Positions 3,150 to 51,560 of a stretch of 64,000 nt of DNA are shown here, in pieces. The first letter of the stretch is position 1. The number at the start of each line of letters is the position of its first letter. The stretch spans positions 10,469-74,468 of the forward strand of contig CAZPVH010000004.1 of the NCBI GenBank assembly GCA_964589975.1, written 5' to 3'. The DNA comes from an uncultured Candidatus Saccharibacteria bacterium. Its GTDB lineage: Bacteria; Patescibacteriota; Minisyncoccia; Phycocordibacterales; CSBR16-119. The notes beneath the pieces are model-generated. The model did not search any database. It was not told where the DNA came from and saw nothing but the letters and a program-made list of their open reading frames with translations. A program made the position numbers and the translations under genes.

Positions 3150-3176
3150 GGGCTCCGCTACTGCTCCGCTAAAAGA

Positions 3177-8775: not shown

Positions 8776-8795
8776 AGTCTCGTGATATAGTGTTG

Positions 8796-8926
8796 TGATG
8801 AATCCCGTTAGTGACCGCGGTCGCTAGCGAGAATTCGTTATCTGAATATGGAATTCTTACTTTATACAAATATTAGTACTATGGCAGTTTGCGGGACGAC
8901 CGCGACCTGTCACTAACGGGATGAAT
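8796..8926. repeat. MITE-like palindromic element (family 2) with about 24-bp terminal inverted repeats and GATGAAT/ATGAAT flanking direct repeat
   Basis: Left arm GAATCCCGTTAGTGACCGCGGTCG, right arm CGACCGCGACCTGTCACTAACGGGAT. The right arm ends at the ATG of the downstream helicase gene. Confidence 0.45.
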
Positions 8927-10858
8927 TACCTCGAAGGCCTAAACGATCGGCAGAAAGAGGCCGTCCTTCATAAGGACGGCCCTTTGCTCATTGTCGCTGG
9001 CGCGGGCGCGGGGAAGACAAAGACTATCACACACAGGATTGCGTACCTCATCGAGCAAGGTGTGCCGGGAGAACAAATTCTTGCCGTAACCTTCACAAAC
9101 AAAGCCGCCAAAGAGATGAATGAGCGCGTGCAAAGCTTGGTAGCACTGCCGGATTTCGCCGGGAGACCGACTATTTGTACATTTCACTCGCTGGGTGTCA
9201 GGATCCTTAAAGAAAACGCTAGAGCACTCGGACTTTCGCGATTTTTCCCAATCATGGATGACGATGACAGTATGTCTCTCATTAAAGAATCCATGAAAGA
9301 GCTCGGCATTGATCCGAAGACTGTTTCGCCTCGTTCGGTTCGCTCATTCATCTCGCGCTCGAAGAATGATTTTTTATCGGAGCAGGATTTCTCCGATCAG
9401 AATGTGAAGTCGTATCAGCAAGCCATCAATCTTTCTGTTTGGAAAAAATATGAAGAGAAGAAAAAAGCCGCAGGAGGACTTGATTTTGACGACCTCTTGC
9501 TCGAGACAACAAAGCTTCTTCAGAAGAATCCAGAAATACTCGCGGTATATCATGCTCGCTGGAGATACATTCATGTGGATGAGTATCAAGACACGAATAA
9601 AGTGCAGTATGTGCTGACGCAGCTCCTTGCCAAGGCGAGCCGGAACATCTGTGTGGTTGGTGATGGTGACCAAAATATTTACAGTTGGCGTGGTGCCGAC
9701 ATTGTAAACATCTTGAACTTCGAGAAGGACTATCCCGACGCTAAAGTGGTACTACTCGAGGAGAATTATCGCTCGACGAAGACGATACTTCACGCGGCGA
9801 ACTCAGTTATAAAGAAGAATAAAGAACGAAAAGAAAAGAATTTATTTACATCAAACGATGATGGTGACATGGTCTCACTTTTTGAAGCCTATAACGATAG
9901 AATCGAAGCTGAATTTGTGGCCGAGAAATGCGTCGAGCTCATGGATAAAGGAATTAAGCCGGAAGACATTGCCGTTCTTTATCGCGCGAACTTCCAGTCG
10001 CGTCTTCTGGAAGAAAAGATGCTCACATATTCCGTGCCTTATCAGGTACTTGGGGTTAAATTCTTTGATCGAAGAGAGGTGAAAGATGTTTTGTCGTACC
10101 TGCGGCTCGCGTTTAATCCGAATTCCTCTGTCGATATCCGCCGGGCAATATCTTTCCCAAAGCGCGGGCTCGGGAAAGTCGCTGTCGAGAAAATCCTTGC
10201 AGGAGAAAAGGATAAATTACCGATGAAGACACTTATAAAAGTGAATCAGTTTTTTGAATCTATCGAAAAGATGCGCGAATATGCCGAATCGCATCTTCCA
10301 TCAGAGACGTTGAAGTATGTCATCAAAGCTTCCGGCATAGAAGCGGAACTAAAAGCCGGGAAGTCTGACGACGATATCGACCGGCTTGAAAATGTCATGG
10401 AAATGGTTTCGTTCGCAGCTAAATATGACAGTTTTCCACCGATCGAGGGTATTGAAAAACTTATCGAAGAAGCGAGTCTTGCATCTGATCAGGATTCGCT
10501 CTCGTCCGAAGGCGAGGCGAAGAAAGAAAAGAATAAGCGTGGTGTGAAGCTTATGACCGTGCATGCCTCAAAGGGGCTCGAGTTTAAATACGTGTTCATC
10601 GTCGGACTTGAAGGCGAGCTTTTTCCGCATGTCCGCGACGACATGTCGGATATCGAAGAAGAGCGCCGCTTGTTTTACGTTGCCATTACGCGCGCTCGCG
10701 AGAAACTGTTCCTGACTTACGCCACGCTTCGCCAGCTTTTTGGTGAGACCAAACTCCAAATGCCGTCGCAGTTCCTAAATGATGTCCCGCAGGAAATACT
10801 TTTCCGCGAGGAAAGGGAGTCGAGCGGGTTTGGGAATAATGTGATATATCTAGATTGA
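8921..10858 (+). CDS. uvrD: UvrD/PcrA-family ATP-dependent DNA helicase
   Basis: GAGAGKTKT Walker A; helicase motifs TFHSLG, VDEYQDTN, VGDGDQNIYSWRGA, YRS; C-terminal motif VHASKGLEF...LFYVAITRA. Confidence 0.85.
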   Translation: MNYLEGLNDRQKEAVLHKDGPLLIVAGAGAGKTKTITHRIAYLIEQGVPGEQILAVTFTNKAAKEMNERVQSLVALPDFAGRPTICTFHSLGVRILKENARALGLSRFFPIMDDDDSMSLIKESMKELGIDPKTVSPRSVRSFISRSKNDFLSEQDFSDQNVKSYQQAINLSVWKKYEEKKKAAGGLDFDDLLLETTKLLQKNPEILAVYHARWRYIHVDEYQDTNKVQYVLTQLLAKASRNICVVGDGDQNIYSWRGADIVNILNFEKDYPDAKVVLLEENYRSTKTILHAANSVIKKNKERKEKNLFTSNDDGDMVSLFEAYNDRIEAEFVAEKCVELMDKGIKPEDIAVLYRANFQSRLLEEKMLTYSVPYQVLGVKFFDRREVKDVLSYLRLAFNPNSSVDIRRAISFPKRGLGKVAVEKILAGEKDKLPMKTLIKVNQFFESIEKMREYAESHLPSETLKYVIKASGIEAELKAGKSDDDIDRLENVMEMVSFAAKYDSFPPIEGIEKLIEEASLASDQDSLSSEGEAKKEKNKRGVKLMTVHASKGLEFKYVFIVGLEGELFPHVRDDMSDIEEERRLFYVAITRAREKLFLTYATLRQLFGETKLQMPSQFLNDVPQEILFREERESSGFGNNVIYLD

Positions 10859-10859
10859 C

Positions 10860-10944
10860 GCTCCGCAAAACATGAGATTTCCTCACCCTGCGGGAGCGCT
10901 TCACTAGGTCCTCGGGATTCGAAAATCTCATGTTTTGACTCCGC
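10860..10944. repeat. MITE-like palindromic intergenic element (family 1, short copy)
   Basis: 15-bp perfect TIR CAAAACATGAGATTT/AAATCTCATGTTTTG flanked by GCTCCGC / ACTCCGC; the internal CTGCGGG...CTCGGGATTCG motif is shared with the elements at about 22.1 kb and 43.8 kb. Confidence 0.5.
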
Positions 10945-19999: not shown

Positions 20000-22072
20000 A
20001 TGGGACTTCTAGATCTCCTCTCGGGGAAAAAACCAAAGAATCCGAAGAAAGAAATCCTGCCGGTATTGCCGGAAGAGATTTATCAGGCTGCGACTTTGGA
20101 GCTTCAGGATATTTTGGCGCCGTCGGCTCTTAAAATATCGCCGAAGGCCCTGAATCTCGGCGACAAAATCGCCCGAACGTATTTCGTCATTTCATACCCA
20201 AGGTTCCTATCAGACAATTGGTTCACTCCAATCATAAACCTCGACAAGATCTTCGATATTGCGATCCACATCCATCCCTTGGATACGAACACCATTCTCC
20301 GAAAATTTCAAAAGAAAGTGGCTGAGGTTCAGAGTCAGGTTAATGTTAGAGAATCAAAAGGCCTTGTGCGTGATCCGGTTCTCGATACGGCGTATCAGGA
20401 TCTTGAAGCTCTTCGTGACTCTTTGCAACAGGCTCAAGACAAGATGTTCGACGTTGGACTCTACATCACCATTTACGCGGATTCCATGCCGGAGCTTTCG
20501 AAGATTGAGAATGAAATCAAGTCGATCCTGGAAGCCAAGCTTGTCTATATCAAGCCAGCGCTATTTCAGCAGGATGTTGGTTTCAATAGCGTGGCGCCGC
20601 TTGCGACAGACTTCTTGGCTGTTCATCAGAAGATGAATACCGAGCCTCTTTCATCCATCTTTCCATTCGTCTCTTTCGATCTTTCGTCCGACAAGGGAAT
20701 TCTTTACGGCATAAATCGTCACAACTCTTCTCTGGTTATTTTCGACCGCTTTTCGCTCGAAAACTATAACTCGGTCACGTTTGCCAAGTCCGGTTCGGGT
20801 AAATCATATTCAACCAAACTAGAGATTCTCCGAACGCTCATGTTCGACGCGGAAGTCATCGTGATCGACCCCGAGAGGGAATACGAATATCTCTCTGAGG
20901 CCATTGGTGGCCGGTATTTCAATATTTCGCTCTCGTCCGAACACCACATCAACCCTTTTGATTTGCCTATTCCGACCGCCGATGAGACGCCGGAAGACGT
21001 TCTTCGCGCCAACACTATCCAGCTGGTTGGAATGTTTCGTATCATGCTCGGGGGCCTCACTCCGGAGGAAGACGCGATTATCGACAAGGCTGTGACAGAG
21101 ACCTACGCTCTAAAAGACATCACGTCAGATTCGGATTTTGCAAACATAGAGCCGCCTCTCCTTTCTGATTTCGAAATGGTTCTCGGTGGAATTGAAGGCT
21201 CAGACTCAATCATGACTCGGCTAGCCAAATACACGAAGGGTTCCTGGAAAAATTTCATTAACCAGCCGACAAACGTTGATATTAACAAGCGTTTTATCGT
21301 TTTCTCTGTTCGCGACATGGAAGACGATTTGAAGCCGGTTGCGATGTATATCGTCACGCACTTTATCTGGAACGCCGTCAGGAAGAATCTCAAAAAGCGC
21401 CTGCTTATCGTTGATGAGGCCTGGTGGATGATGAAGAGCGAAGATACTGCTTCCTTCCTTTACAGTATCGCCAAGCGAGGACGAAAATACTTCCTCGGCC
21501 TCTCAACCATCACTCAGGACGTGAATGACTTCGTGGAGAGCCAGTACGGCATGGCTATTGTCACGAACTCTTCGATGCAGCTACTCCTCAAGCAGTCCAC
21601 GAGCTCGGCCGACGCTCTCCAAAAAGTCTTTAACCTGACGGACGAGGAAAAATATCTCCTGCTCGAATCGGAAGTCGGCGAGGGCATCTTCTTTGCGGGC
21701 TTGAAGCATGTTGCCATAAAGGTCATTGCCTCATACACCGAAGATCAGATCATTACTTCGGACCCATCCCAGGTTTTGGCGATCAAGAAGGCTAAAGAGC
21801 AATTCCGAGAAGACGAAAAGGAGTTCGTGCGTACGGAAGGCGAACGTTTGGCAGGGGCCATGAATATTGAAGAAAGGCCAGAACCGACGTCATCTCCGGT
21901 CGAAGAATCGCCGACTAGACCCGCACAAGTTGTGGCTGAGCCAGAAAATCCAATTCCTCCCGCAAAGTCTACGGGGCCGAGGCCTCAGACAGAAACAGAG
22001 AATCTGGCCGAAGAGAGCGAGGGGCTGTCTGACGAGATTGATGATTTGGAGAAGATGTTTAAAGAATATTAG
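20000..22072 (+). CDS. virB4: VirB4/TrbE-family type IV secretion ATPase (ATPase domain)
   Basis: Walker A FAKSGSGKS, Walker B LLIVDEAWWMM, conserved VirB4 C-terminal motifs; acidic C-terminal tail. Confidence 0.85.
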   Translation: MGLLDLLSGKKPKNPKKEILPVLPEEIYQAATLELQDILAPSALKISPKALNLGDKIARTYFVISYPRFLSDNWFTPIINLDKIFDIAIHIHPLDTNTILRKFQKKVAEVQSQVNVRESKGLVRDPVLDTAYQDLEALRDSLQQAQDKMFDVGLYITIYADSMPELSKIENEIKSILEAKLVYIKPALFQQDVGFNSVAPLATDFLAVHQKMNTEPLSSIFPFVSFDLSSDKGILYGINRHNSSLVIFDRFSLENYNSVTFAKSGSGKSYSTKLEILRTLMFDAEVIVIDPEREYEYLSEAIGGRYFNISLSSEHHINPFDLPIPTADETPEDVLRANTIQLVGMFRIMLGGLTPEEDAIIDKAVTETYALKDITSDSDFANIEPPLLSDFEMVLGGIEGSDSIMTRLAKYTKGSWKNFINQPTNVDINKRFIVFSVRDMEDDLKPVAMYIVTHFIWNAVRKNLKKRLLIVDEAWWMMKSEDTASFLYSIAKRGRKYFLGLSTITQDVNDFVESQYGMAIVTNSSMQLLLKQSTSSADALQKVFNLTDEEKYLLLESEVGEGIFFAGLKHVAIKVIASYTEDQIITSDPSQVLAIKKAKEQFREDEKEFVRTEGERLAGAMNIEERPEPTSSPVEESPTRPAQVVAEPENPIPPAKSTGPRPQTETENLAEESEGLSDEIDDLEKMFKEY

Positions 22073-22075
22073 GAA

Positions 22076-22245
22076 GCTCCGCAGAATGCTTATTTAGGAA
22101 TCCTCCGAGATGCGCGCCCTCCATCCCTCGTAGCCCTCGGAATGGAGAAAACTGGCGCGCCCCCTCACGAAAAAGCTCCTAAAAGGGAGCTTTTTCTGCG
22201 GGTTCGTTCTCGGATTCCTAAATAAGCACTCTGCTCCGCGGAGAG
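22076..22245. repeat. MITE-like palindromic intergenic element (family 1, long copy)
   Basis: 21-bp TIR AGAATGCTTATTTAGGAATCC / GGATTCCTAAATAAGCACTCT with nested GC-rich hairpins. Internal CTGCGGGTTCGTTCTCGGATTCC is conserved with the copy at about 43.8 kb. Flanked by direct GCTCCGC on both sides. Confidence 0.5.
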
Positions 22246-27031: not shown

Positions 27032-27109
27032 TTAGATTCTATTGGTTAGAGAAAAAACGAGCCGACAGGCTCGTTTTTTCTCCATAAGTTATTAACTGAT
27101 CAACAGAAG

Positions 27110-36618: not shown

Positions 36619-39600
36619 ATGTCATCTTTTAGAACCAAAGTCGCCGCCGCAGTTTTCACAATCGTCGCTCTCACATTCGGGCCATACGCGGCTCTCGCGC
36701 AGAACTCCTGGACTCCGCCGACACAGGCTCCGACCGGCGGCAACGTTCCGGCTCCGGTAAACGTCGGAATATCCGACCAGACCAAGCTTGGACCTTTGTC
36801 GATAAAGGGCGCTTTCAAGAGCCTCTCCACTTCTACGCTCTCTGGTGATGTTGTCACTCAGCCTGACACCAGTGGCTTTGGCTTCATGGCAAACTTTCTT
36901 GAGACATTCTTCTATAACAATGTCTATGTGGGAGATGCAACTCCTTTCAATGGTTCCGGTAATGAAATCCCGGTAGACTTCAATGTCTACGGTAAGTTCA
37001 AATATCAAACAGCAGATAATGCCGGCAATCCTGAGCCAGTAAATCCTGGTGACATTCTCGTGGCCAATGACGAGGGCTACACCGAATGGGCTGACCCATC
37101 AACTATTTCAGGTGGCGGTTCAGACCCAAGATTGCCAAATGGTACATCAAAAGGCGACACATTATATTGGGATCCGACCACTAGTAAATGGGTGGTAGCA
37201 TCAAATGTTCAAATAAGTCCAAATGTTTTTGAGTCTCTTCGAGCTACTGGCACAAATGGAGGACTTCATGTTTTGAATGACGGCTCAGTGGTTTCTGATT
37301 ACCGAGCTTCTTTTACCGGCGGACTCAAAGTAACTCTTCCGAGCGGCGCTCCGACACCTGGACAGGTTCTTGAAACATCAGACAACCAAGGAAACATAGC
37401 TTGGGGAGATGGACTACCTCCGGGAGGAAATAATGGTGATGTTTTGGTGTGGAACAGTACTACTAATCAATGGGAATCGACGACTTTCAATGTAACTGGA
37501 AGTCTTCCTCCGGGTAACTCAACCGGCCAGTCTCTTCGATGGACCGGTACTGCATGGCAGGTGACGGATGCTGTTAAGACTCCGAGCGATACAACTGTCC
37601 AGATTGGCGCCAACGCAAGCAACACCGCAGTCATGATTGGAAACACGGTCAACACGTCGTTCATGCAGATCAATTCCAACAGTTTAAATTTAAACCCTGA
37701 CGCTATCAGTATCCCTCTAAACGGCACAGCCGCTGCTGGTAAGGTTCTGGCCTCAAGTAATAACACTGGTGCCCTGGCTTGGACAGATGTCTCAAGTCTT
37801 CCCGGGGGACTTCCCGCAGGAACAACTGGTCAGACCCTTTGGCACAACGGCACATCATGGCAACCTACAAGCAAACTTATTTGGAACGGCGCAGGAGAAG
37901 TCTTAAAGTTTGAAGGATCGGGTCTTCTTTTGAAGGGGGAGGGCGGCGCACTCGACCCAGCTGAGGGACGATTCTTGCAGTCTAAAAATGATCAGGGGGA
38001 AGTAGTATGGAATAAATACTTTGTTTATAAAGACATACCTTATGTAGATGATGGTGTAGACAAGCATATCGACTCTATCGAGATTCTTGAAAGCAATGGT
38101 GATGATACCAGGACTTCTGGACTGGCTAACTATGGCGAATATACTTACCTTGCGAATCGTTTAGAAGTCGATGGTCTTACGTTCCTAAATAACGACACAG
38201 AGGTTAACGGCGAGTCTATATTAAATGGCAATACCACAATTTCTACTAGTGGAGACCTGTGGCTTGAGGGAATCGACGCCCTGCCACCGACACAGATGGA
38301 TCTTAATGGCAATCCTGTATCGATGAATTACAACCTAGAGTCTCTTTGTATAAATAGACAAGATTTCAAGGTCGTCCTCTGTGATCCAGGCGCGGGCAAA
38401 CCAAAGCCTCAAGTTATTGGAACATTTACAGAGACTTTTGGTCCTGGTTCTGGCACAGGCGTATCATTCCCAAGACCTAATCAGGCCCCAGGTCCTGTTG
38501 AGGTGAAAATGTGTGCTGCTGGCGGTGGTGGTGGTGGTGGTGGACGTGGATTTGAGATTGATCTTAATGAATATGGTCACGGTGGTGGTGGTGGTGGTGG
38601 TGGTGGTAAGGGGCAATGTTCGACAACTACAATAAATCCTGGTGATGGAGAAGAAATCACATGGACATCGATAGGCGCAGGTGGTTCTGGAGGAAGTCCG
38701 GGAAATATTGATGTGGTCTATGGTTACGGCGAGCCGTATCAGGTAAATGCTAATACTGCAGCTACAAGCGGTCAGCCTGGAGGAGGTACTCAGGTTTATT
38801 TTGAAGGAAATCTATTGGCTAGTCTAATGGGCGGATCAGGTGGTTATGCGGGCGGAAATGCTAGTACTAGCGGACAAGGTATCGGTGGAAGTGGTGGTTC
38901 GAGTGATTTAACAGTTGCTACTGTTTGGTGGCATAAGGGTGCCAACGGTCAAATAGACTCAGAGGGTGGCAATGGTGGTCATGGTGGTAAAGGAGAAGAT
39001 AATGCTTCTGGGCAGGGTGGTGAGGGTGGTGGTTCTGGTCAATTTCAAAGTGGCCAACAATTTGGTGGAAATGGAATGCAGGGAGCTGCTGGTTATGGCG
39101 GCGGTGGCGGTGGCGGCGCATCTGGAAAGTGGTACGATTACGCCTATACTTTAAGTAATCAGAATGATGATGATAACGCTTACGTTAGTCATGGAGGCTG
39201 GGGCGGAAATGGCGGAAGTGGTTATGTTGCTATTACCTACAACATATATCTTCCAGATCCGGAACCTATTACTGAACAGCTCTTTACAGAATCAGGCACG
39301 TTTAACATAAATGTTATTCCGACAAATGTTGTTGATGTTACTATCGAAGCTTGGGGAGGCGGCGGTGGCGGAGGACTTGCTCAAAACGCTGTTGGTGGTC
39401 TGTCCGGAAGCCACAATAGATACGGCGGCGGCGGAGGTTCTGGAGGCTATGCGAAGACGATTATTCCGAGAGCAAACCTCACAAATACTCTGAATGTAAT
39501 CGTTGGCGGAGGAGGAGCAGCCTCAGCTAATGGTGGACCAAGTAGTGTTGTCGGGGGCGGTCAGATTGTTACGGCATACGGTGGTGAGGGCGGAAAAGAC

Positions 39601-39861
39601 TCGATCCAGAACGCAGCATGTACAGCCGGAGGTAATGGAGGTACGAATAACTACGGACAGGATCAGGCGGTAGACGGAGGCGACGGAGGAGCTTGTGGAG
39701 TTCTCCAGGTCAACCCACCTGTTGTCGGGGCTGGCCAGGGTGGAGTCCAGTCTGTCGGTGGTTATGGCACAGGAGGCAACGGAGCTAAACTGTTCGGTTC
39801 AGGAGCTAGTCCTGTAGCGGCCCAGAGTGGTCAGGCCGGACGAGTTCTCATCTCTTGGTAA
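36619..39861 (+). CDS. giant secreted Gly-rich repeat protein (1080 aa)
   Basis: Signal peptide; N-terminal half has at least 6 degenerate G(D/Q)xL-x(8–12)-W repeats of about 38 aa; C-terminal half has poly-Gly runs and GGxGG repeats. Confidence 0.65.
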   Translation: MSSFRTKVAAAVFTIVALTFGPYAALAQNSWTPPTQAPTGGNVPAPVNVGISDQTKLGPLSIKGAFKSLSTSTLSGDVVTQPDTSGFGFMANFLETFFYNNVYVGDATPFNGSGNEIPVDFNVYGKFKYQTADNAGNPEPVNPGDILVANDEGYTEWADPSTISGGGSDPRLPNGTSKGDTLYWDPTTSKWVVASNVQISPNVFESLRATGTNGGLHVLNDGSVVSDYRASFTGGLKVTLPSGAPTPGQVLETSDNQGNIAWGDGLPPGGNNGDVLVWNSTTNQWESTTFNVTGSLPPGNSTGQSLRWTGTAWQVTDAVKTPSDTTVQIGANASNTAVMIGNTVNTSFMQINSNSLNLNPDAISIPLNGTAAAGKVLASSNNTGALAWTDVSSLPGGLPAGTTGQTLWHNGTSWQPTSKLIWNGAGEVLKFEGSGLLLKGEGGALDPAEGRFLQSKNDQGEVVWNKYFVYKDIPYVDDGVDKHIDSIEILESNGDDTRTSGLANYGEYTYLANRLEVDGLTFLNNDTEVNGESILNGNTTISTSGDLWLEGIDALPPTQMDLNGNPVSMNYNLESLCINRQDFKVVLCDPGAGKPKPQVIGTFTETFGPGSGTGVSFPRPNQAPGPVEVKMCAAGGGGGGGGRGFEIDLNEYGHGGGGGGGGGKGQCSTTTINPGDGEEITWTSIGAGGSGGSPGNIDVVYGYGEPYQVNANTAATSGQPGGGTQVYFEGNLLASLMGGSGGYAGGNASTSGQGIGGSGGSSDLTVATVWWHKGANGQIDSEGGNGGHGGKGEDNASGQGGEGGGSGQFQSGQQFGGNGMQGAAGYGGGGGGGASGKWYDYAYTLSNQNDDDNAYVSHGGWGGNGGSGYVAITYNIYLPDPEPITEQLFTESGTFNINVIPTNVVDVTIEAWGGGGGGGLAQNAVGGLSGSHNRYGGGGGSGGYAKTIIPRANLTNTLNVIVGGGGAASANGGPSSVVGGGQIVTAYGGEGGKDSIQNAACTAGGNGGTNNYGQDQAVDGGDGGACGVLQVNPPVVGAGQGGVQSVGGYGTGGNGAKLFGSGASPVAAQSGQAGRVLISW
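38521..38612 (+). repeat. (GGT)n microsatellites inside the Gly-rich gene
   Basis: Two runs of 7–8 GGT units encoding Gly8–Gly9. Confidence 0.7.
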
Positions 39862-42697: not shown

Positions 42698-43711
42698 TTA
42701 GCGTTTTGTGATCGTGCGGGCTGTTCCGTCCTGGAACCGGACAACATAGTTGCCAGGGATGAAAGACGTTCCGTCGATTGCTCCGCTGTTGTCAGTTTGT
42801 CCGGTCCAGACAACGCGTCCATTCATGTCGGTTACAACTGCCGATTTCGAGACGGTTGTGACCCGGCACTTGTCGAAGAATGGATTCGGGTATGACTGGA
42901 AGCTGTTGGTGACAACTTCTTCCGTGCTCGTGCTCATGTCGCCTGCCAGGAAGCAGTCGGACTCAGTGGTTACAATGACCGCGGAGAACGATGTGCCAAA
43001 GCCGATGTCAGCGAGACCGTTCTCACTATGGAGCAGTCGAAGCTCGATCTTGAGATCGGTGGGGAGGCCATCGTAGATGAAGCTGAAGCTGTAGTGGTCC
43101 GATGTGTTCCAGTACTGCTCTTGCTGTTGCGATTCCAGGACTTCGAGCGTTGCGCAGTTGATCAGTCGGGCTTCCACGAAGGAGCGTTTCTGTCCGCAGT
43201 CATTGTAGACCGTGGATGCGATATTCCAATCGAGAGCGTGAACCTGACAGCAAACCTGTCCAACGATGGCAGTCGGTGCTTCCTCGAAGTCGAAGATGAC
43301 CGGAGTATTGTAGACCTGAGCCCAGGTTTCTGAGCCGTTGGTATTAGTGCCAGCGCACCAGACGTATTGACCGTTTTCGATCGTGAAGAGATCGAGAACT
43401 ACCGAAGCGAACTCGTAGCTCGCATTTGGCACCATCGGTACGTATGTCACCGACATGGTGTCCAGTCCCGGGGAGTCGATGAAGTAGTTGGTCGTGGTCG
43501 GCTGACCATTGATGGTCGCTACGACAACTTTCGGGTTGTTATCCGACCATTCGGTGCTGAAGACGACGAGAACTTCACCGGCTTTGTAGCAGATAGGGCC
43601 GATGTTTTGGCCGGCTTGGCACTGCCAGTCGAGTATGTCGACCGAAGAGGCAAGGGAAGTTCCCACGCTAACACTGGCGCAAAACGCTAAAGTGACGAAG
43701 AGCTTGTTCAT
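42698..43711 (-). CDS. secreted protein with T9SS-type (Por_Secre_tail-like) C-terminal sorting domain
   Basis: Signal peptide; C-terminal 70 aa SYPNPFFDKCRVTT...VTDMNGRVVWTG...GNYVVRFQDGTARTITKR match the type A T9SS CTD consensus (YPNPF, DxxGRxV, GxYxV, K-rich end). Confidence 0.55.
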   Translation of the reverse strand: MNKLFVTLAFCASVSVGTSLASSVDILDWQCQAGQNIGPICYKAGEVLVVFSTEWSDNNPKVVVATINGQPTTTNYFIDSPGLDTMSVTYVPMVPNASYEFASVVLDLFTIENGQYVWCAGTNTNGSETWAQVYNTPVIFDFEEAPTAIVGQVCCQVHALDWNIASTVYNDCGQKRSFVEARLINCATLEVLESQQQEQYWNTSDHYSFSFIYDGLPTDLKIELRLLHSENGLADIGFGTSFSAVIVTTESDCFLAGDMSTSTEEVVTNSFQSYPNPFFDKCRVTTVSKSAVVTDMNGRVVWTGQTDNSGAIDGTSFIPGNYVVRFQDGTARTITKR

Positions 43712-43769
43712 GGGTTATGGTTGTTTTTCTGAATATTACCATGAAAGCCTATAAAAGTCAAATTGGGCT

Positions 43770-43930
43770 CCCCAGAATGTGTTATTTGGGATTCTGCGAG
43801 ACGCCCGCCAGCCTTCCTCCGAGCACTCGGAAGGCTCATGAAGCACTAGTAGGCGGGCGCCCTCACGGCCTGTGCGCAGGCCTGCGGGTTCGTTCTCGAA
43901 TCCCAAAAAACACATTCTGCTTCGCTGGAA
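43770..43930. repeat. MITE-like palindromic intergenic element (family 1, long copy)
   Basis: 20-bp TIR GAATGTGTTATTTGGGATTC / GAATCCCAAAAAACACATTC; internal CTGCGGGTTCGTTCTCGAATCCC; about 80% identity over both ends to the copy at about 22.1 kb. Confidence 0.5.
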
Positions 43931-43939
43931 GGGGGGAGA

Positions 43940-44344
43940 TTAGAGATTAGCCTTTATTTTTTCAGCAAATTCAGACATTTCACCGGTTGAGTCATATGAT
44001 ACTTCCGGGCGAGTTGATATGTGCACCTCGCTTTCGTTGTAGCGTGGGATGAGATGGATATGGAAATGTGGTACCTCATTACCAACAACGCCAATTTGGA
44101 CATAATCGCATGGTATTCCTGAACGCATCGCATTTATAATCTCCTTGGCTTTGATGAAAATTTCTCCTACGAGCTCGTCGGGGGCTTCATGAATCCATGT
44201 GTAATGTGCCTTTGGTATTAATAGGGTGTGACCTTTTGTAACTGGGTGAATGTCCAAAAATGCCAAGAATTTTTCATCCTCGTAAACCTTTGTCGCAGGG
44301 ATCTCCCCATCGATTATCTTCTCGAATATCGTTTTCATAGTCAC
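43940..44344 (-). CDS. HIT-family (histidine triad) nucleotide hydrolase
   Basis: HxHxHxx motif HFHIHLIP; 134 aa. Confidence 0.85.
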   Translation of the reverse strand: MTMKTIFEKIIDGEIPATKVYEDEKFLAFLDIHPVTKGHTLLIPKAHYTWIHEAPDELVGEIFIKAKEIINAMRSGIPCDYVQIGVVGNEVPHFHIHLIPRYNESEVHISTRPEVSYDSTGEMSEFAEKIKANL

Positions 44345-44370
44345 ATTTTATCACATGTTATACTTGGCAA

Positions 44371-50775: not shown

Positions 50776-50812
50776 GGATCCCGTTAGAGGCCGCGATCGC
50801 GGACGATAACGG
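50776..50812. repeat. short palindromic element related to family 2 (collapsed TIR-only copy)
   Basis: ATCCCGTTAGAGGCCGCGATCGCGGACGATAACGG shares the ATCCCGTTAG..CCGCG..TCGC arm with the element at 8796–8926. Confidence 0.35.
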
Positions 50813-50822
50813 AAAAAAATTT

Positions 50823-51560
50823 ATGAAAACACAAAACTCACAAAAGAATACTGAAGTTTCAGAAACCTCAAGATCGCGATCTGCCTCTAACGGGATGGAA
50901 GCAACCATCTACAACAAAGAAGGAAAAGCAGCAGGGAAAATAGAATTGCCAGCGGATATCTTTGGTCTCTCTTGGAATGCCGACTTGGTTCACCAGGTCA
51001 TGACTTCGATGAACCAGAACGCGCGAGCGAACACAGCTTCGACTAAAGATCGATCTGAGGTCTCGGGTACTGGCGCGAAGCCTTGGAAGCAGAAGGGAAC
51101 AGGCCGCGCGCGACATGGTTCACGCCGTTCTCCAATCTGGGTCAAAGGAGGCGTGGCTCATGGTCCGAATCCTGACCGAAACTACACAAAGAAGATCAAC
51201 AAGAAGATGAGCGCCAAAGCTCTCTTTACCGCAATATCAAAGAAGATGAAAGACGGAGAGGTTCTTTTCGTCGATACGCTCTCGATGGGAGAGATGAAAA
51301 CGAAGGAAGCTGCAAAGGCACTCATGGCTCTTGGTGGCATTACCGGCTTCGAGCGCCTCCAAGGCTCAAAGAAAGTTGTTGCGCACATCGCAACCGCGAA
51401 GCGCGAAGATAATACCGCAAAGAGCTTCAACAACATTCCGTTCGTCGAAGTTGGCGAGATCCGAAACATCAATCTTCTCGACGTCATCAATCATCGTTAC
51501 CTTATCATTGAAAGCCCAAAGGAGTCTGTCGAATTCCTGGCCTCTAAGCTAGCAAAATAA
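50823..51560 (+). CDS. rplD: 50S ribosomal protein L4
   Basis: PWKQKGTGRARHGS...GGVAHGP; N-terminal 24-aa extension. The start could be the internal ATG at about 50895. Confidence 0.92.
   Translation: MKTQNSQKNTEVSETSRSRSASNGMEATIYNKEGKAAGKIELPADIFGLSWNADLVHQVMTSMNQNARANTASTKDRSEVSGTGAKPWKQKGTGRARHGSRRSPIWVKGGVAHGPNPDRNYTKKINKKMSAKALFTAISKKMKDGEVLFVDTLSMGEMKTKEAAKALMALGGITGFERLQGSKKVVAHIATAKREDNTAKSFNNIPFVEVGEIRNINLLDVINHRYLIIESPKESVEFLASKLAK

Follow-up and report, generated by a model that had tools for sequence, protein, structure and literature searches.

The element reported here has its closest described counterparts among several classes of short palindromic DNA repeats. RPEs are palindromic repeats of ~100-150 bp, present in several copies, which are located between genes and also in frame in unrelated housekeeping genes that are not destroyed by them, one DNA core being read as different peptides (PMC10969869, which is the source of the features that we compare, in-frame insertions included). 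REPINs, in turn, are hairpin units of similar size, mobilised by RAYT transposases that a cognate single-copy gene encodes; they are composed of two inverted REPs of ~20 nt, each with a palindromic core, on either side of a spacer, and found mostly at the 3' ends of genes. They are characterized by vertical inheritance, long persistence and little recent activity (PMC3337134, PMC3116915). MITE-type repeats are co-transcribed with their neighbours and can form RNase targets or barriers (PMC10969869). In addition, near-perfect arms can be accounted for by quasipalindrome template switching (PMC7202029), which is a mutational process and not a family of elements. ERIC and Correia/nemis elements have a similar size as well; the ERIC elements exist as long and short variants that differ by internal modules, and the Correia elements carry promoters.

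Patescibacteria, or candidate phyla radiation (CPR), have genomes of ~1 Mb, which are regarded as streamlined and repeat-poor. The literature yielded nothing relevant on such elements in Patescibacteria/CPR, and the palindromic element family of these tiny-genome bacteria that we present here is previously undescribed. A long-lived hairpin family would open the genome dynamics of Patescibacteria/CPR to study, and its palindromes could serve as strain markers. The DNA analysed is a stretch of 64 kb, called the window throughout, and ~0.3 Mb of related DNA was examined besides it. The gene content of the window (T4SS pilin, VirB4-like ATPase, PG-binding, M15 and M23 proteins) fits Patescibacteria, and the named RecJ and IF-2 relatives belong to Candidatus Paceibacterota, Nomurabacteria and Taylorbacteria (NCBI phylum Minisyncoccota, class-level Patescibacteria). 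The source of the window is probably a member of Patescibacteria/CPR.

The initial annotation had placed a palindromic element at 43770-43930. The element is present, but its exact limits are others: covariance models delimit a hairpin-forming repeat of 159 bp, from here on copy B, at 43767-43925, and these limits are also bracketed by an empty site in the relative L011 and a remnant in L048. Two models, R1 and R2, were built from the long copies, and the + orientation was defined as that of the strand bearing CCCTCACG. The parts of copy B are the following:

43767..43925, + strand: whole element, full-length covariance-model match (134.9 bits with R1, 135.4 bits with R2)
43767..43773, + strand: 5' terminal heptamer GCTCCCC (family consensus GCTCCGC)
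43773..43794, + strand: 5' arm of the long closing stem P1, CAGAATGTGTTATTTGGGATTC, from the inverted-repeat search
43797..43801, + strand: CGAGA, inner end of the closing stem, paired with TCTCG at 43894-43898; a helix nearly invariant in 7 copies
43802..43859, + strand: P2, GC-rich hairpin with an internal loop; an optional module, missing from the L049, L006 and S copies
43860..43867, + strand: conserved junction motif CCCTCACG, found in A, B, L008, L049, L006 and L036, and as CCCTCATG in L007
43867..43882, + strand: P3, small hairpin GGCCTG-TGCG-CAGGCC, whose sequence and length vary in every copy
43882..43898, + strand: conserved 17-mer CTGCGGGTTCGTTCTCG (family consensus CTSCRGGYTSGTTCTCG)
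43898..43919, + strand: 3' arm of P1, from the inverted-repeat search
43919..43925, + strand: 3' terminal heptamer GCTTCGC, a direct and not an inverted copy of the 5' heptamer

The architecture of copy B is thereby that of a closing inverted repeat, a three-way junction, two GC-rich hairpins and conserved joining motifs. The arms of P1 have 22 nt, are 95% complementary and lie 103 nt apart; a 20-mer of this inverted repeat occurs in the window only at these two sites when up to 3 mismatches are allowed, with a chance expectation of 0.01. The inverted repeat that had been described as a 20-bp TIR does exist, but it is not terminal: it is subterminal, and the outermost 6-7 nt at both ends are direct copies of each other. 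The flanks GCTCCCC and GCTTCGC were found as reported, and the 5' heptamer also opens copies A and S, the L007, L008, L049 and L006 copies and the one at L050 2559. The internal GC-rich stems were likewise located, three in number, by inverted-repeat search and folding (43802-43809/43852-43859, 43810-43817/43829-43836 and 43867-43872/43877-43882). As RNA, copy B folds with -89.9 kcal/mol on the + strand (z -5.5) and -88.4 on the - strand (z -6.0); as DNA, the + strand folds with -49.5 kcal/mol (z -8.2).

A census of the window with R1 and R2, with filters off, gave two long copies and one short copy; one remnant reduced to the heptamers is present as well. Besides copy B, they are:

22076..22239, + strand: copy A, long form, 164 bp; begins 3 nt past the stop codon of a VirB4/TraG-like ATPase gene (20000-22072)
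10860..10944, + strand: copy S, short form, 85 bp, without P2; 30.3 bits, E 1e-5, a rough value from a short calibration
3152..3169, + strand: remnant or unoccupied site GCTCCGC-TACT-GCTCCGC, with both terminal heptamers and the interior missing

Beyond A, B and S, neither model gave a further convincing copy in the window. Copies A and B align along their whole length, with 135-166 bits in the models, and follow the same plan with different stem sequences, as had been proposed for the copy at 22.1 kb. The conserved core that had been noticed is there too: a 23-nt core of copy B is repeated at 22196-22218 with 2 mismatches, and the exact 17-mer CTGCGGGTTCGTTCTCG is common to both copies. Copy S begins 1 nt past the stop codon of a uvrD-like gene and lies 28 nt ahead of rsmA. 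A ComM-like gene stops 2 nt ahead of the site at 3152-3169, and an ordinary terminator hairpin comes after the site; the latter resembles two family termini that have lost what lay between them, or a docking site without an occupant. The density is thus of ~3 copies per 64 kb, with an identity of 52-74% between copies. In pairwise alignment the identity of A and B is 0.73, similar to that of B and its positional orthologues (0.71-0.72), and there has therefore been no recent burst in this genome. Rfam 15 gave 0 matches at the gathering threshold in the whole window and only chance-level ones at E up to 10 for both long copies, the tRNA/tmRNA scan found no genes in the window, and there was no match to the element in phage records, plasmid records or viral contigs.

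RecJ-HIT synteny is retained in the relatives, and this made it possible to compare the locus of copy B among them (percentages are of RecJ identity unless stated otherwise):

L007 and L008, 89-90%: element of ~160 bp at exactly the same place
L049, 87%: 108-bp version without P2, 82 bits
L006, located by way of a neighbouring protein (75% identity): likewise a version without P2, cut off by the end of the contig
L050, 70%: a member of 146 bp whose 27-bp arms are perfect and whose P2 apical loop, TCCGAGCACTCGG, is that of copy B; the spacer is here the one between PGK and HIT
L048, 88%: 27-bp remnant GCTACC...ACTCCGC
L011, 73%: clean empty site

Copy B is old: a relative as distant as L050, with a RecJ identity of 70%, already has it between PGK and HIT. 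Between the window and the relatives with 87-90% RecJ identity, the fourfold-degenerate sites of recJ are identical in only 0.32-0.39 of cases, which means that neutral divergence is saturated. The positional orthologues of the element nevertheless retain an identity of ~0.60 in the multiple alignment and 0.71-0.72 in pairwise alignment. This shows that the element is old at the locus and under constraint, though it can be lost, and that copy B has been kept far above the neutral expectation. The equivalent locus of the low-GC relative L052 (RecJ 69%) has an AT-rich palindrome with arms of ~27 bp (~9279-9397), which comes immediately after the stop codon of PGK; the family model gives no detection there. 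In L006, it is the short-read contig itself that ends inside the element (positions 1-61), an example of the breaks that these palindromes cause in short-read assemblies. Gene calling is affected too, with spurious ORFs such as the 116-aa call that spans the L008 copy (L008 9396-9746).

The surroundings of copy B in the window are as follows:

43940-44344, - strand: HIT gene, whose stop codon lies 14 nt past the right end of copy B
43733..43761 (read 43761-43733), - strand: sigma-70-like promoter TTGACT-N17-(TG)TAATAT of gene 42698-43711, 6 bp to the left of the element and not part of it
42698-43711, - strand: gene of a secreted protein with a Por_Secre_tail-like C-terminal domain, next after HIT and copy B

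The element is antisense to both adjoining genes, and its placement 3' of HIT and upstream of gene 42698-43711 is as initially described. The product of this gene had been labelled a T9SS-CTD protein. A match to Por_Secre_tail does exist, but it stays below the Pfam cut-off (25.9 vs 27 bits). The domain is on record for the L048 homologue, and a homologue is also present in L049; a type IX secretion signal is unexpected in a Patescibacteria-like lineage.

The same annotation had suggested that the element supplies a promoter or a terminator to the adjacent genes. Copy B does not provide the promoter of gene 42698-43711. The TTGACT-17-TAATAT site with its TG extension is the only good sigma-70-like site for this gene; it is conserved in L007, L008, L048, L049 and L006 and partly in L011, that is, it is intact where the element is down to 27 bp (L048) and recognisable where there is no element at all (L011). 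The flank on the promoter side is 82-95% identical in relatives with saturated fourfold-degenerate sites. This is a useful negative for the HIT locus, where the element is not the source of the downstream gene's promoter. A Bacteroidota-type promoter was also considered and dropped, because a sigma-70-type site is present and the organism is CPR-like.

The terminator role, as it was formulated, does not hold either. No GC stem followed by a T run was found in copy B, the closing stem being followed by GCTTCGCTGG on the + strand and by GGGGAGCCCA on the - strand, and within copy B we detected no promoter or terminator of its own. Moreover, family members are located inside the reading frame of infB, an essential gene, and hence such hairpins cannot be efficient terminators as such. 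A weaker role as a putative barrier or stabiliser, in the form of a 3' hairpin of the HIT transcript, is possible: copy B would be transcribed as the tail of the HIT message and would do no more than separate HIT from the gene that follows, as a passive hairpin barrier. An outer pairing (P0) between the 5' heptamer and a G-rich sequence downstream of copy B was rejected, as it is not conserved in L008, L049 and L011.

To what extent the palindrome is maintained as such can be seen in an alignment of 7 copies, where 95.5% of the cells are paired and both sides have changed in 27 of the 45 pairs. None of 500 shuffles matched this number of compensatory pairs, and slid controls had at most 8 of them. 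In P1 alone, changes on both sides affect 19 of the 21 pairs. Only 2 of 289 cells are G-U, with a similar number of A-C cells (equivalent to G-U on the opposite strand), so that the pairs carry no strand signal. With respect to the genes, the copies have no common orientation: A and S are in sense, B runs antisense to the genes on either side, the L036 copy is antisense to infB, and other copies lie between convergent or divergent genes. The bias in orientation with respect to upstream genes was not significant, with only two informative tandem contexts. Taken together, the pairing data and the orientations point to a palindrome under constraint at the DNA level, which fits better than a strand-specific RNA.

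The search for copies elsewhere was done in several ways. A scan of JGI metagenomes with a degenerate pattern returned 33 loci, one of which is real (L036). A scan of GTDB genomes with CCTCACGN{8,38}TGCGGGTTCGTTCTC gave 3 matches, all due to chance in high-GC DNA and two of them clearly coding; this pattern is too strict, as relatives have CTCCGGGCTGGTTCTC. The genome and metagenome scans alike required exact core motifs, and diverged members are therefore missed by them. A 59-aa frame across the element, compared with 1.84 billion proteins, found two unrelated repetitive proteins only.

The copy in L036, a Paceibacterota metagenome contig, scores 54.5 bits, has all the core motifs and perfect 21-bp arms, and lies in frame within the infB linker that connects domain II with C1, the gene being antisense to the copy. 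Other palindromes occupy the same codons in infB relatives of 67-79% identity, at these positions:

L036, 4981-5089: the copy just described
L045, 10879-10959: linker hairpin, 23 bits
L046, 10877-10956: linker hairpin, 33.9 bits
L047, 2485-2564: linker hairpin, 23 bits

The arms of these infB palindromes differ with compensating changes, and the peptide that they encode varies. Every infB of the clade has a near-perfect hairpin of different sequence at the same codons, with a hypervariable linker peptide, in proteins of 503-529 aa. The core of the L046/L047 type (GAGCGCGTAGTCGGAGCG...) is found again as an exact insertion of 21 codons (63 bp) in alr of L036 (11753-11827) and L046 (4148-4222); in the alr gene of L045 (3439-4632), 80-82% identical, the insertion is missing and the empty site is clean. 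The alr insert opens with 12 nt that match exactly, as reverse complement, the 12 native nt directly after the insert, and the two covary between L036 and L046. One arm is, in other words, an inverted copy of the host flank, which may expose the mechanism, whether palindrome growth or hairpin-guided insertion; the relation fits growth of the palindrome by template switching (PMC7202029) or a choice of target based on complementarity. The homology of the window family with the GAGCGCGTAGTCGGAGCG type of alr and infB is tentative, since it is drawn from weak scores (23-34 bits) and a common position. For the window's own family, the sure in-frame case is infB of L036 only, and the filled and empty alr genes represent a sister type.

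Gains and losses were also observed between genes. Between HIT and RecJ, L007 carries an inserted palindrome of 85 bp (9904-9988) whose 22-bp arms are perfect and which lies directly ahead of an extended -10 box; the same site is empty in the window (44345-44370) and in L008 (9969-10000). In L050, a 133-bp member at 2559-2691 fills exactly the gap between two convergent stop codons, those of a PG-binding protein gene and clpP, and the matching site of the window (27049-27082) holds a plain bidirectional terminator made of an A-tract, a GC-stem and a T-tract. Copies A and S, the 3152 remnant and the members at L050 2559 and L050 9315 all start 1-6 nt past a same-strand stop codon.

These observations define a modular unit, in which a variable and near-perfect closing stem is combined with conserved CGAGA/TCTCG, CCCTCACG and CTSCRGGYTSGTTCTCG and with optional inner hairpins. 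Copies of the window type are bounded by direct GCTCCGC heptamers. The units abut stop codons in intergenic spacers, they have been gained and lost across evolution, as is seen from filled sites, empty sites and remnants, and in relatives they lie in frame within infB and alr without breaking these genes.

The likeness to RPEs is one of described features and not of sequence. Size and multiplicity agree, and the family is found both between genes and in frame in unrelated housekeeping genes, while copy B itself is intergenic; the core is read as ERVVGAERTSE in infB and as ERVSRSEAHKR in alr. On the other hand, the host phylum is here Patescibacteria, and the modular junction, the optional inner hairpins and the termini made of direct heptamers set the present elements apart. 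To our knowledge there is no relationship in sequence between the family of copy B and RPEs, and none would be expected at such a distance between hosts.

With REPINs the family shares the size, the preference for gene 3' ends, the vertical inheritance and a very long persistence with little recent activity, but two of the features that define REPINs are not found in it. There is no REP doublet, that is, two inverted ~20-nt REPs: the arms have 15-27 nt without a palindromic core, and what they enclose is a structured junction. Copy B lies outside genes, but the family is not purely extragenic, given its infB and alr members. In addition, ~3 copies per 64 kb with 52-74% identity contrast with the large near-identical populations of REPINs. 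The family is not a classical MITE either. The inverted repeat is not terminal, although some copies of relatives (L036, L007 9904) have inverted ends; the flanking heptamers are the same at every locus, and no target is duplicated at L011, at window 44345-44370 or at alr of L045. We know of no parent insertion sequence for the family. Long and short variants by internal modules recall ERIC, and unlike in Correia elements the promoter of copy B's neighbour is outside the element. Quasipalindrome template switching accounts for near-perfect arms in spite of the divergence between species and for the 12-nt inverted flank in alr, but it leaves the conserved junction motifs and the spread unexplained.

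With moderate confidence, we interpret copy B as a member of a family of palindromic, hairpin-forming DNA repeats of ~85-165 bp in Patescibacteria/CPR that behaves in a way similar to RPEs and REPINs. Past spread could have occurred by copying and insertion of hairpin-forming, probably single-stranded DNA, and a protein acting in trans would recognise the conserved junction and terminal motifs. What keeps the arms complementary may be selection acting on the hairpin, correction from a template during replication (quasipalindrome template switching) or a combination of the two, and template switching could extend the arms into the host flank, as may be the case in alr. The Pfam scan of 47 window ORFs revealed no transposase or other gene for mobilisation, nor did the genes called at the relatives' loci include one, and the window ORFs scanned gave no match to a Y1 transposase or RAYT. 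Neither target-site duplications nor near-identical copies were seen, and recent mobility is unsupported. The strong conservation at the orthologous locus is unlike that of a decaying selfish insertion, and a function for the host fits at least as well. Because of this strong constraint, both a structured RNA and a protein-bound DNA site have to be considered as functional alternatives.

According to the first one, which we regard as unlikely but worth keeping in mind, the element would be a structured RNA with a function for the host, either a 3'-UTR module or a small RNA that acts as stabiliser of the upstream message, as gene insulator or by binding protein through the junction nucleotides. 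Helices that vary around joining nucleotides that do not are what a functional RNA usually shows, and conservation above neutral at the orthologous locus, the start of five sites 1-6 nt past a same-strand stop codon (A, S, the 3152 remnant, L050 2559, L050 9315) and the replacement of a plain bidirectional terminator by a family member (L050 2559-2691) are all in line with it. Such an RNA would nevertheless have to be reconciled with non-Watson-Crick pairs that show no strand asymmetry, with the lack of a promoter or terminator of its own, and with the orientation of copy B, antisense to both neighbours, as well as of the firm infB copy in L036, antisense to infB, while other copies lie between divergent genes. 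The loss of the element in L011 and L048, where the neighbouring genes and the promoter remain, and the absence of Rfam matches even at E up to 10 also weigh against it. Several known RNAs and recombination structures were discarded as candidates: the motifs do not fit a hammerhead, a twister-type ribozyme, a tRNA-like T-arm, a retron or an integron attC when compared by eye with the consensus motifs, there is no reverse transcriptase or integrase nearby, and the Rfam result is negative.

The second alternative, a rather improbable one in our estimation, is a host site at the DNA level, which would be retained because a cellular protein binds it, either as an extruded hairpin or cruciform or through the conserved motifs of the duplex; conceivable binders are a nucleoid protein, a factor of replication or repair, or a domesticated RAYT-like enzyme. 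The covariation limited to Watson-Crick pairs and symmetric between strands, the same motifs in both orientations and in very different contexts, the stable DNA folding (z -8.2) and a persistence as long as in REPIN-RAYT systems (PMC3337134; bioRxiv 10.1101/2021.07.10.451892) speak for this reading. Against it, no candidate binding protein was identified, short family members do without most of the conserved motifs, and the locus tolerates the loss of the element (L011, L048).

The position just past the HIT stop codon and the A/T-rich outer ends of the stem (as in bidirectional terminators) might suggest that copy B is simply the intrinsic terminator of HIT, or else a palindrome that arose by chance and has no family. 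This is effectively refuted by the 159-nt three-way junction with no GC stem and T run, the chance expectation of 0.01 for the arms, the compensatory changes in the alignment, the homologous copies elsewhere (E down to 1e-41, on the rough calibration of the models) and the family members inside infB.

Returning to the repeat family, a further and more speculative reading, which we put forward as a tentative possibility, is that these structured palindromes make up a new class of DNA modules, specific to Patescibacteria and actively maintained rather than decaying: conserved past synonymous saturation at orthologous sites, docking precisely at stop codons (at start codons in the second type treated below), tolerated in frame in essential genes such as infB and alr, and with stems that grow by inverted copying of the host flank. 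If true, this would mean an undescribed mechanism of hairpin-templated insertion, or else a structural or regulatory code that extends over whole streamlined genomes.

Two other features of the window should be mentioned. A second palindromic family is present at 8795-8929 and 50778-50896, with arms ATCCCGTTAG... / ...CTAACGGGAT, and in both copies the 3' arm meets a start codon, that of a uvrD-like gene (8921) and that of rplD (real start at 50895). The rplC-rplD spacer has 130 bp in the window vs 4-10 bp in L050 and L052, which indicates an insertion within the S10 ribosomal-protein operon; the copy at rplD could sequester the start codon of L4. Finally, runs of GGT/GGC codons (glycine-rich repeats) extend over 38514-39380, within the gene of a 1080-aa Gly_rich_2 protein (36619-39861).
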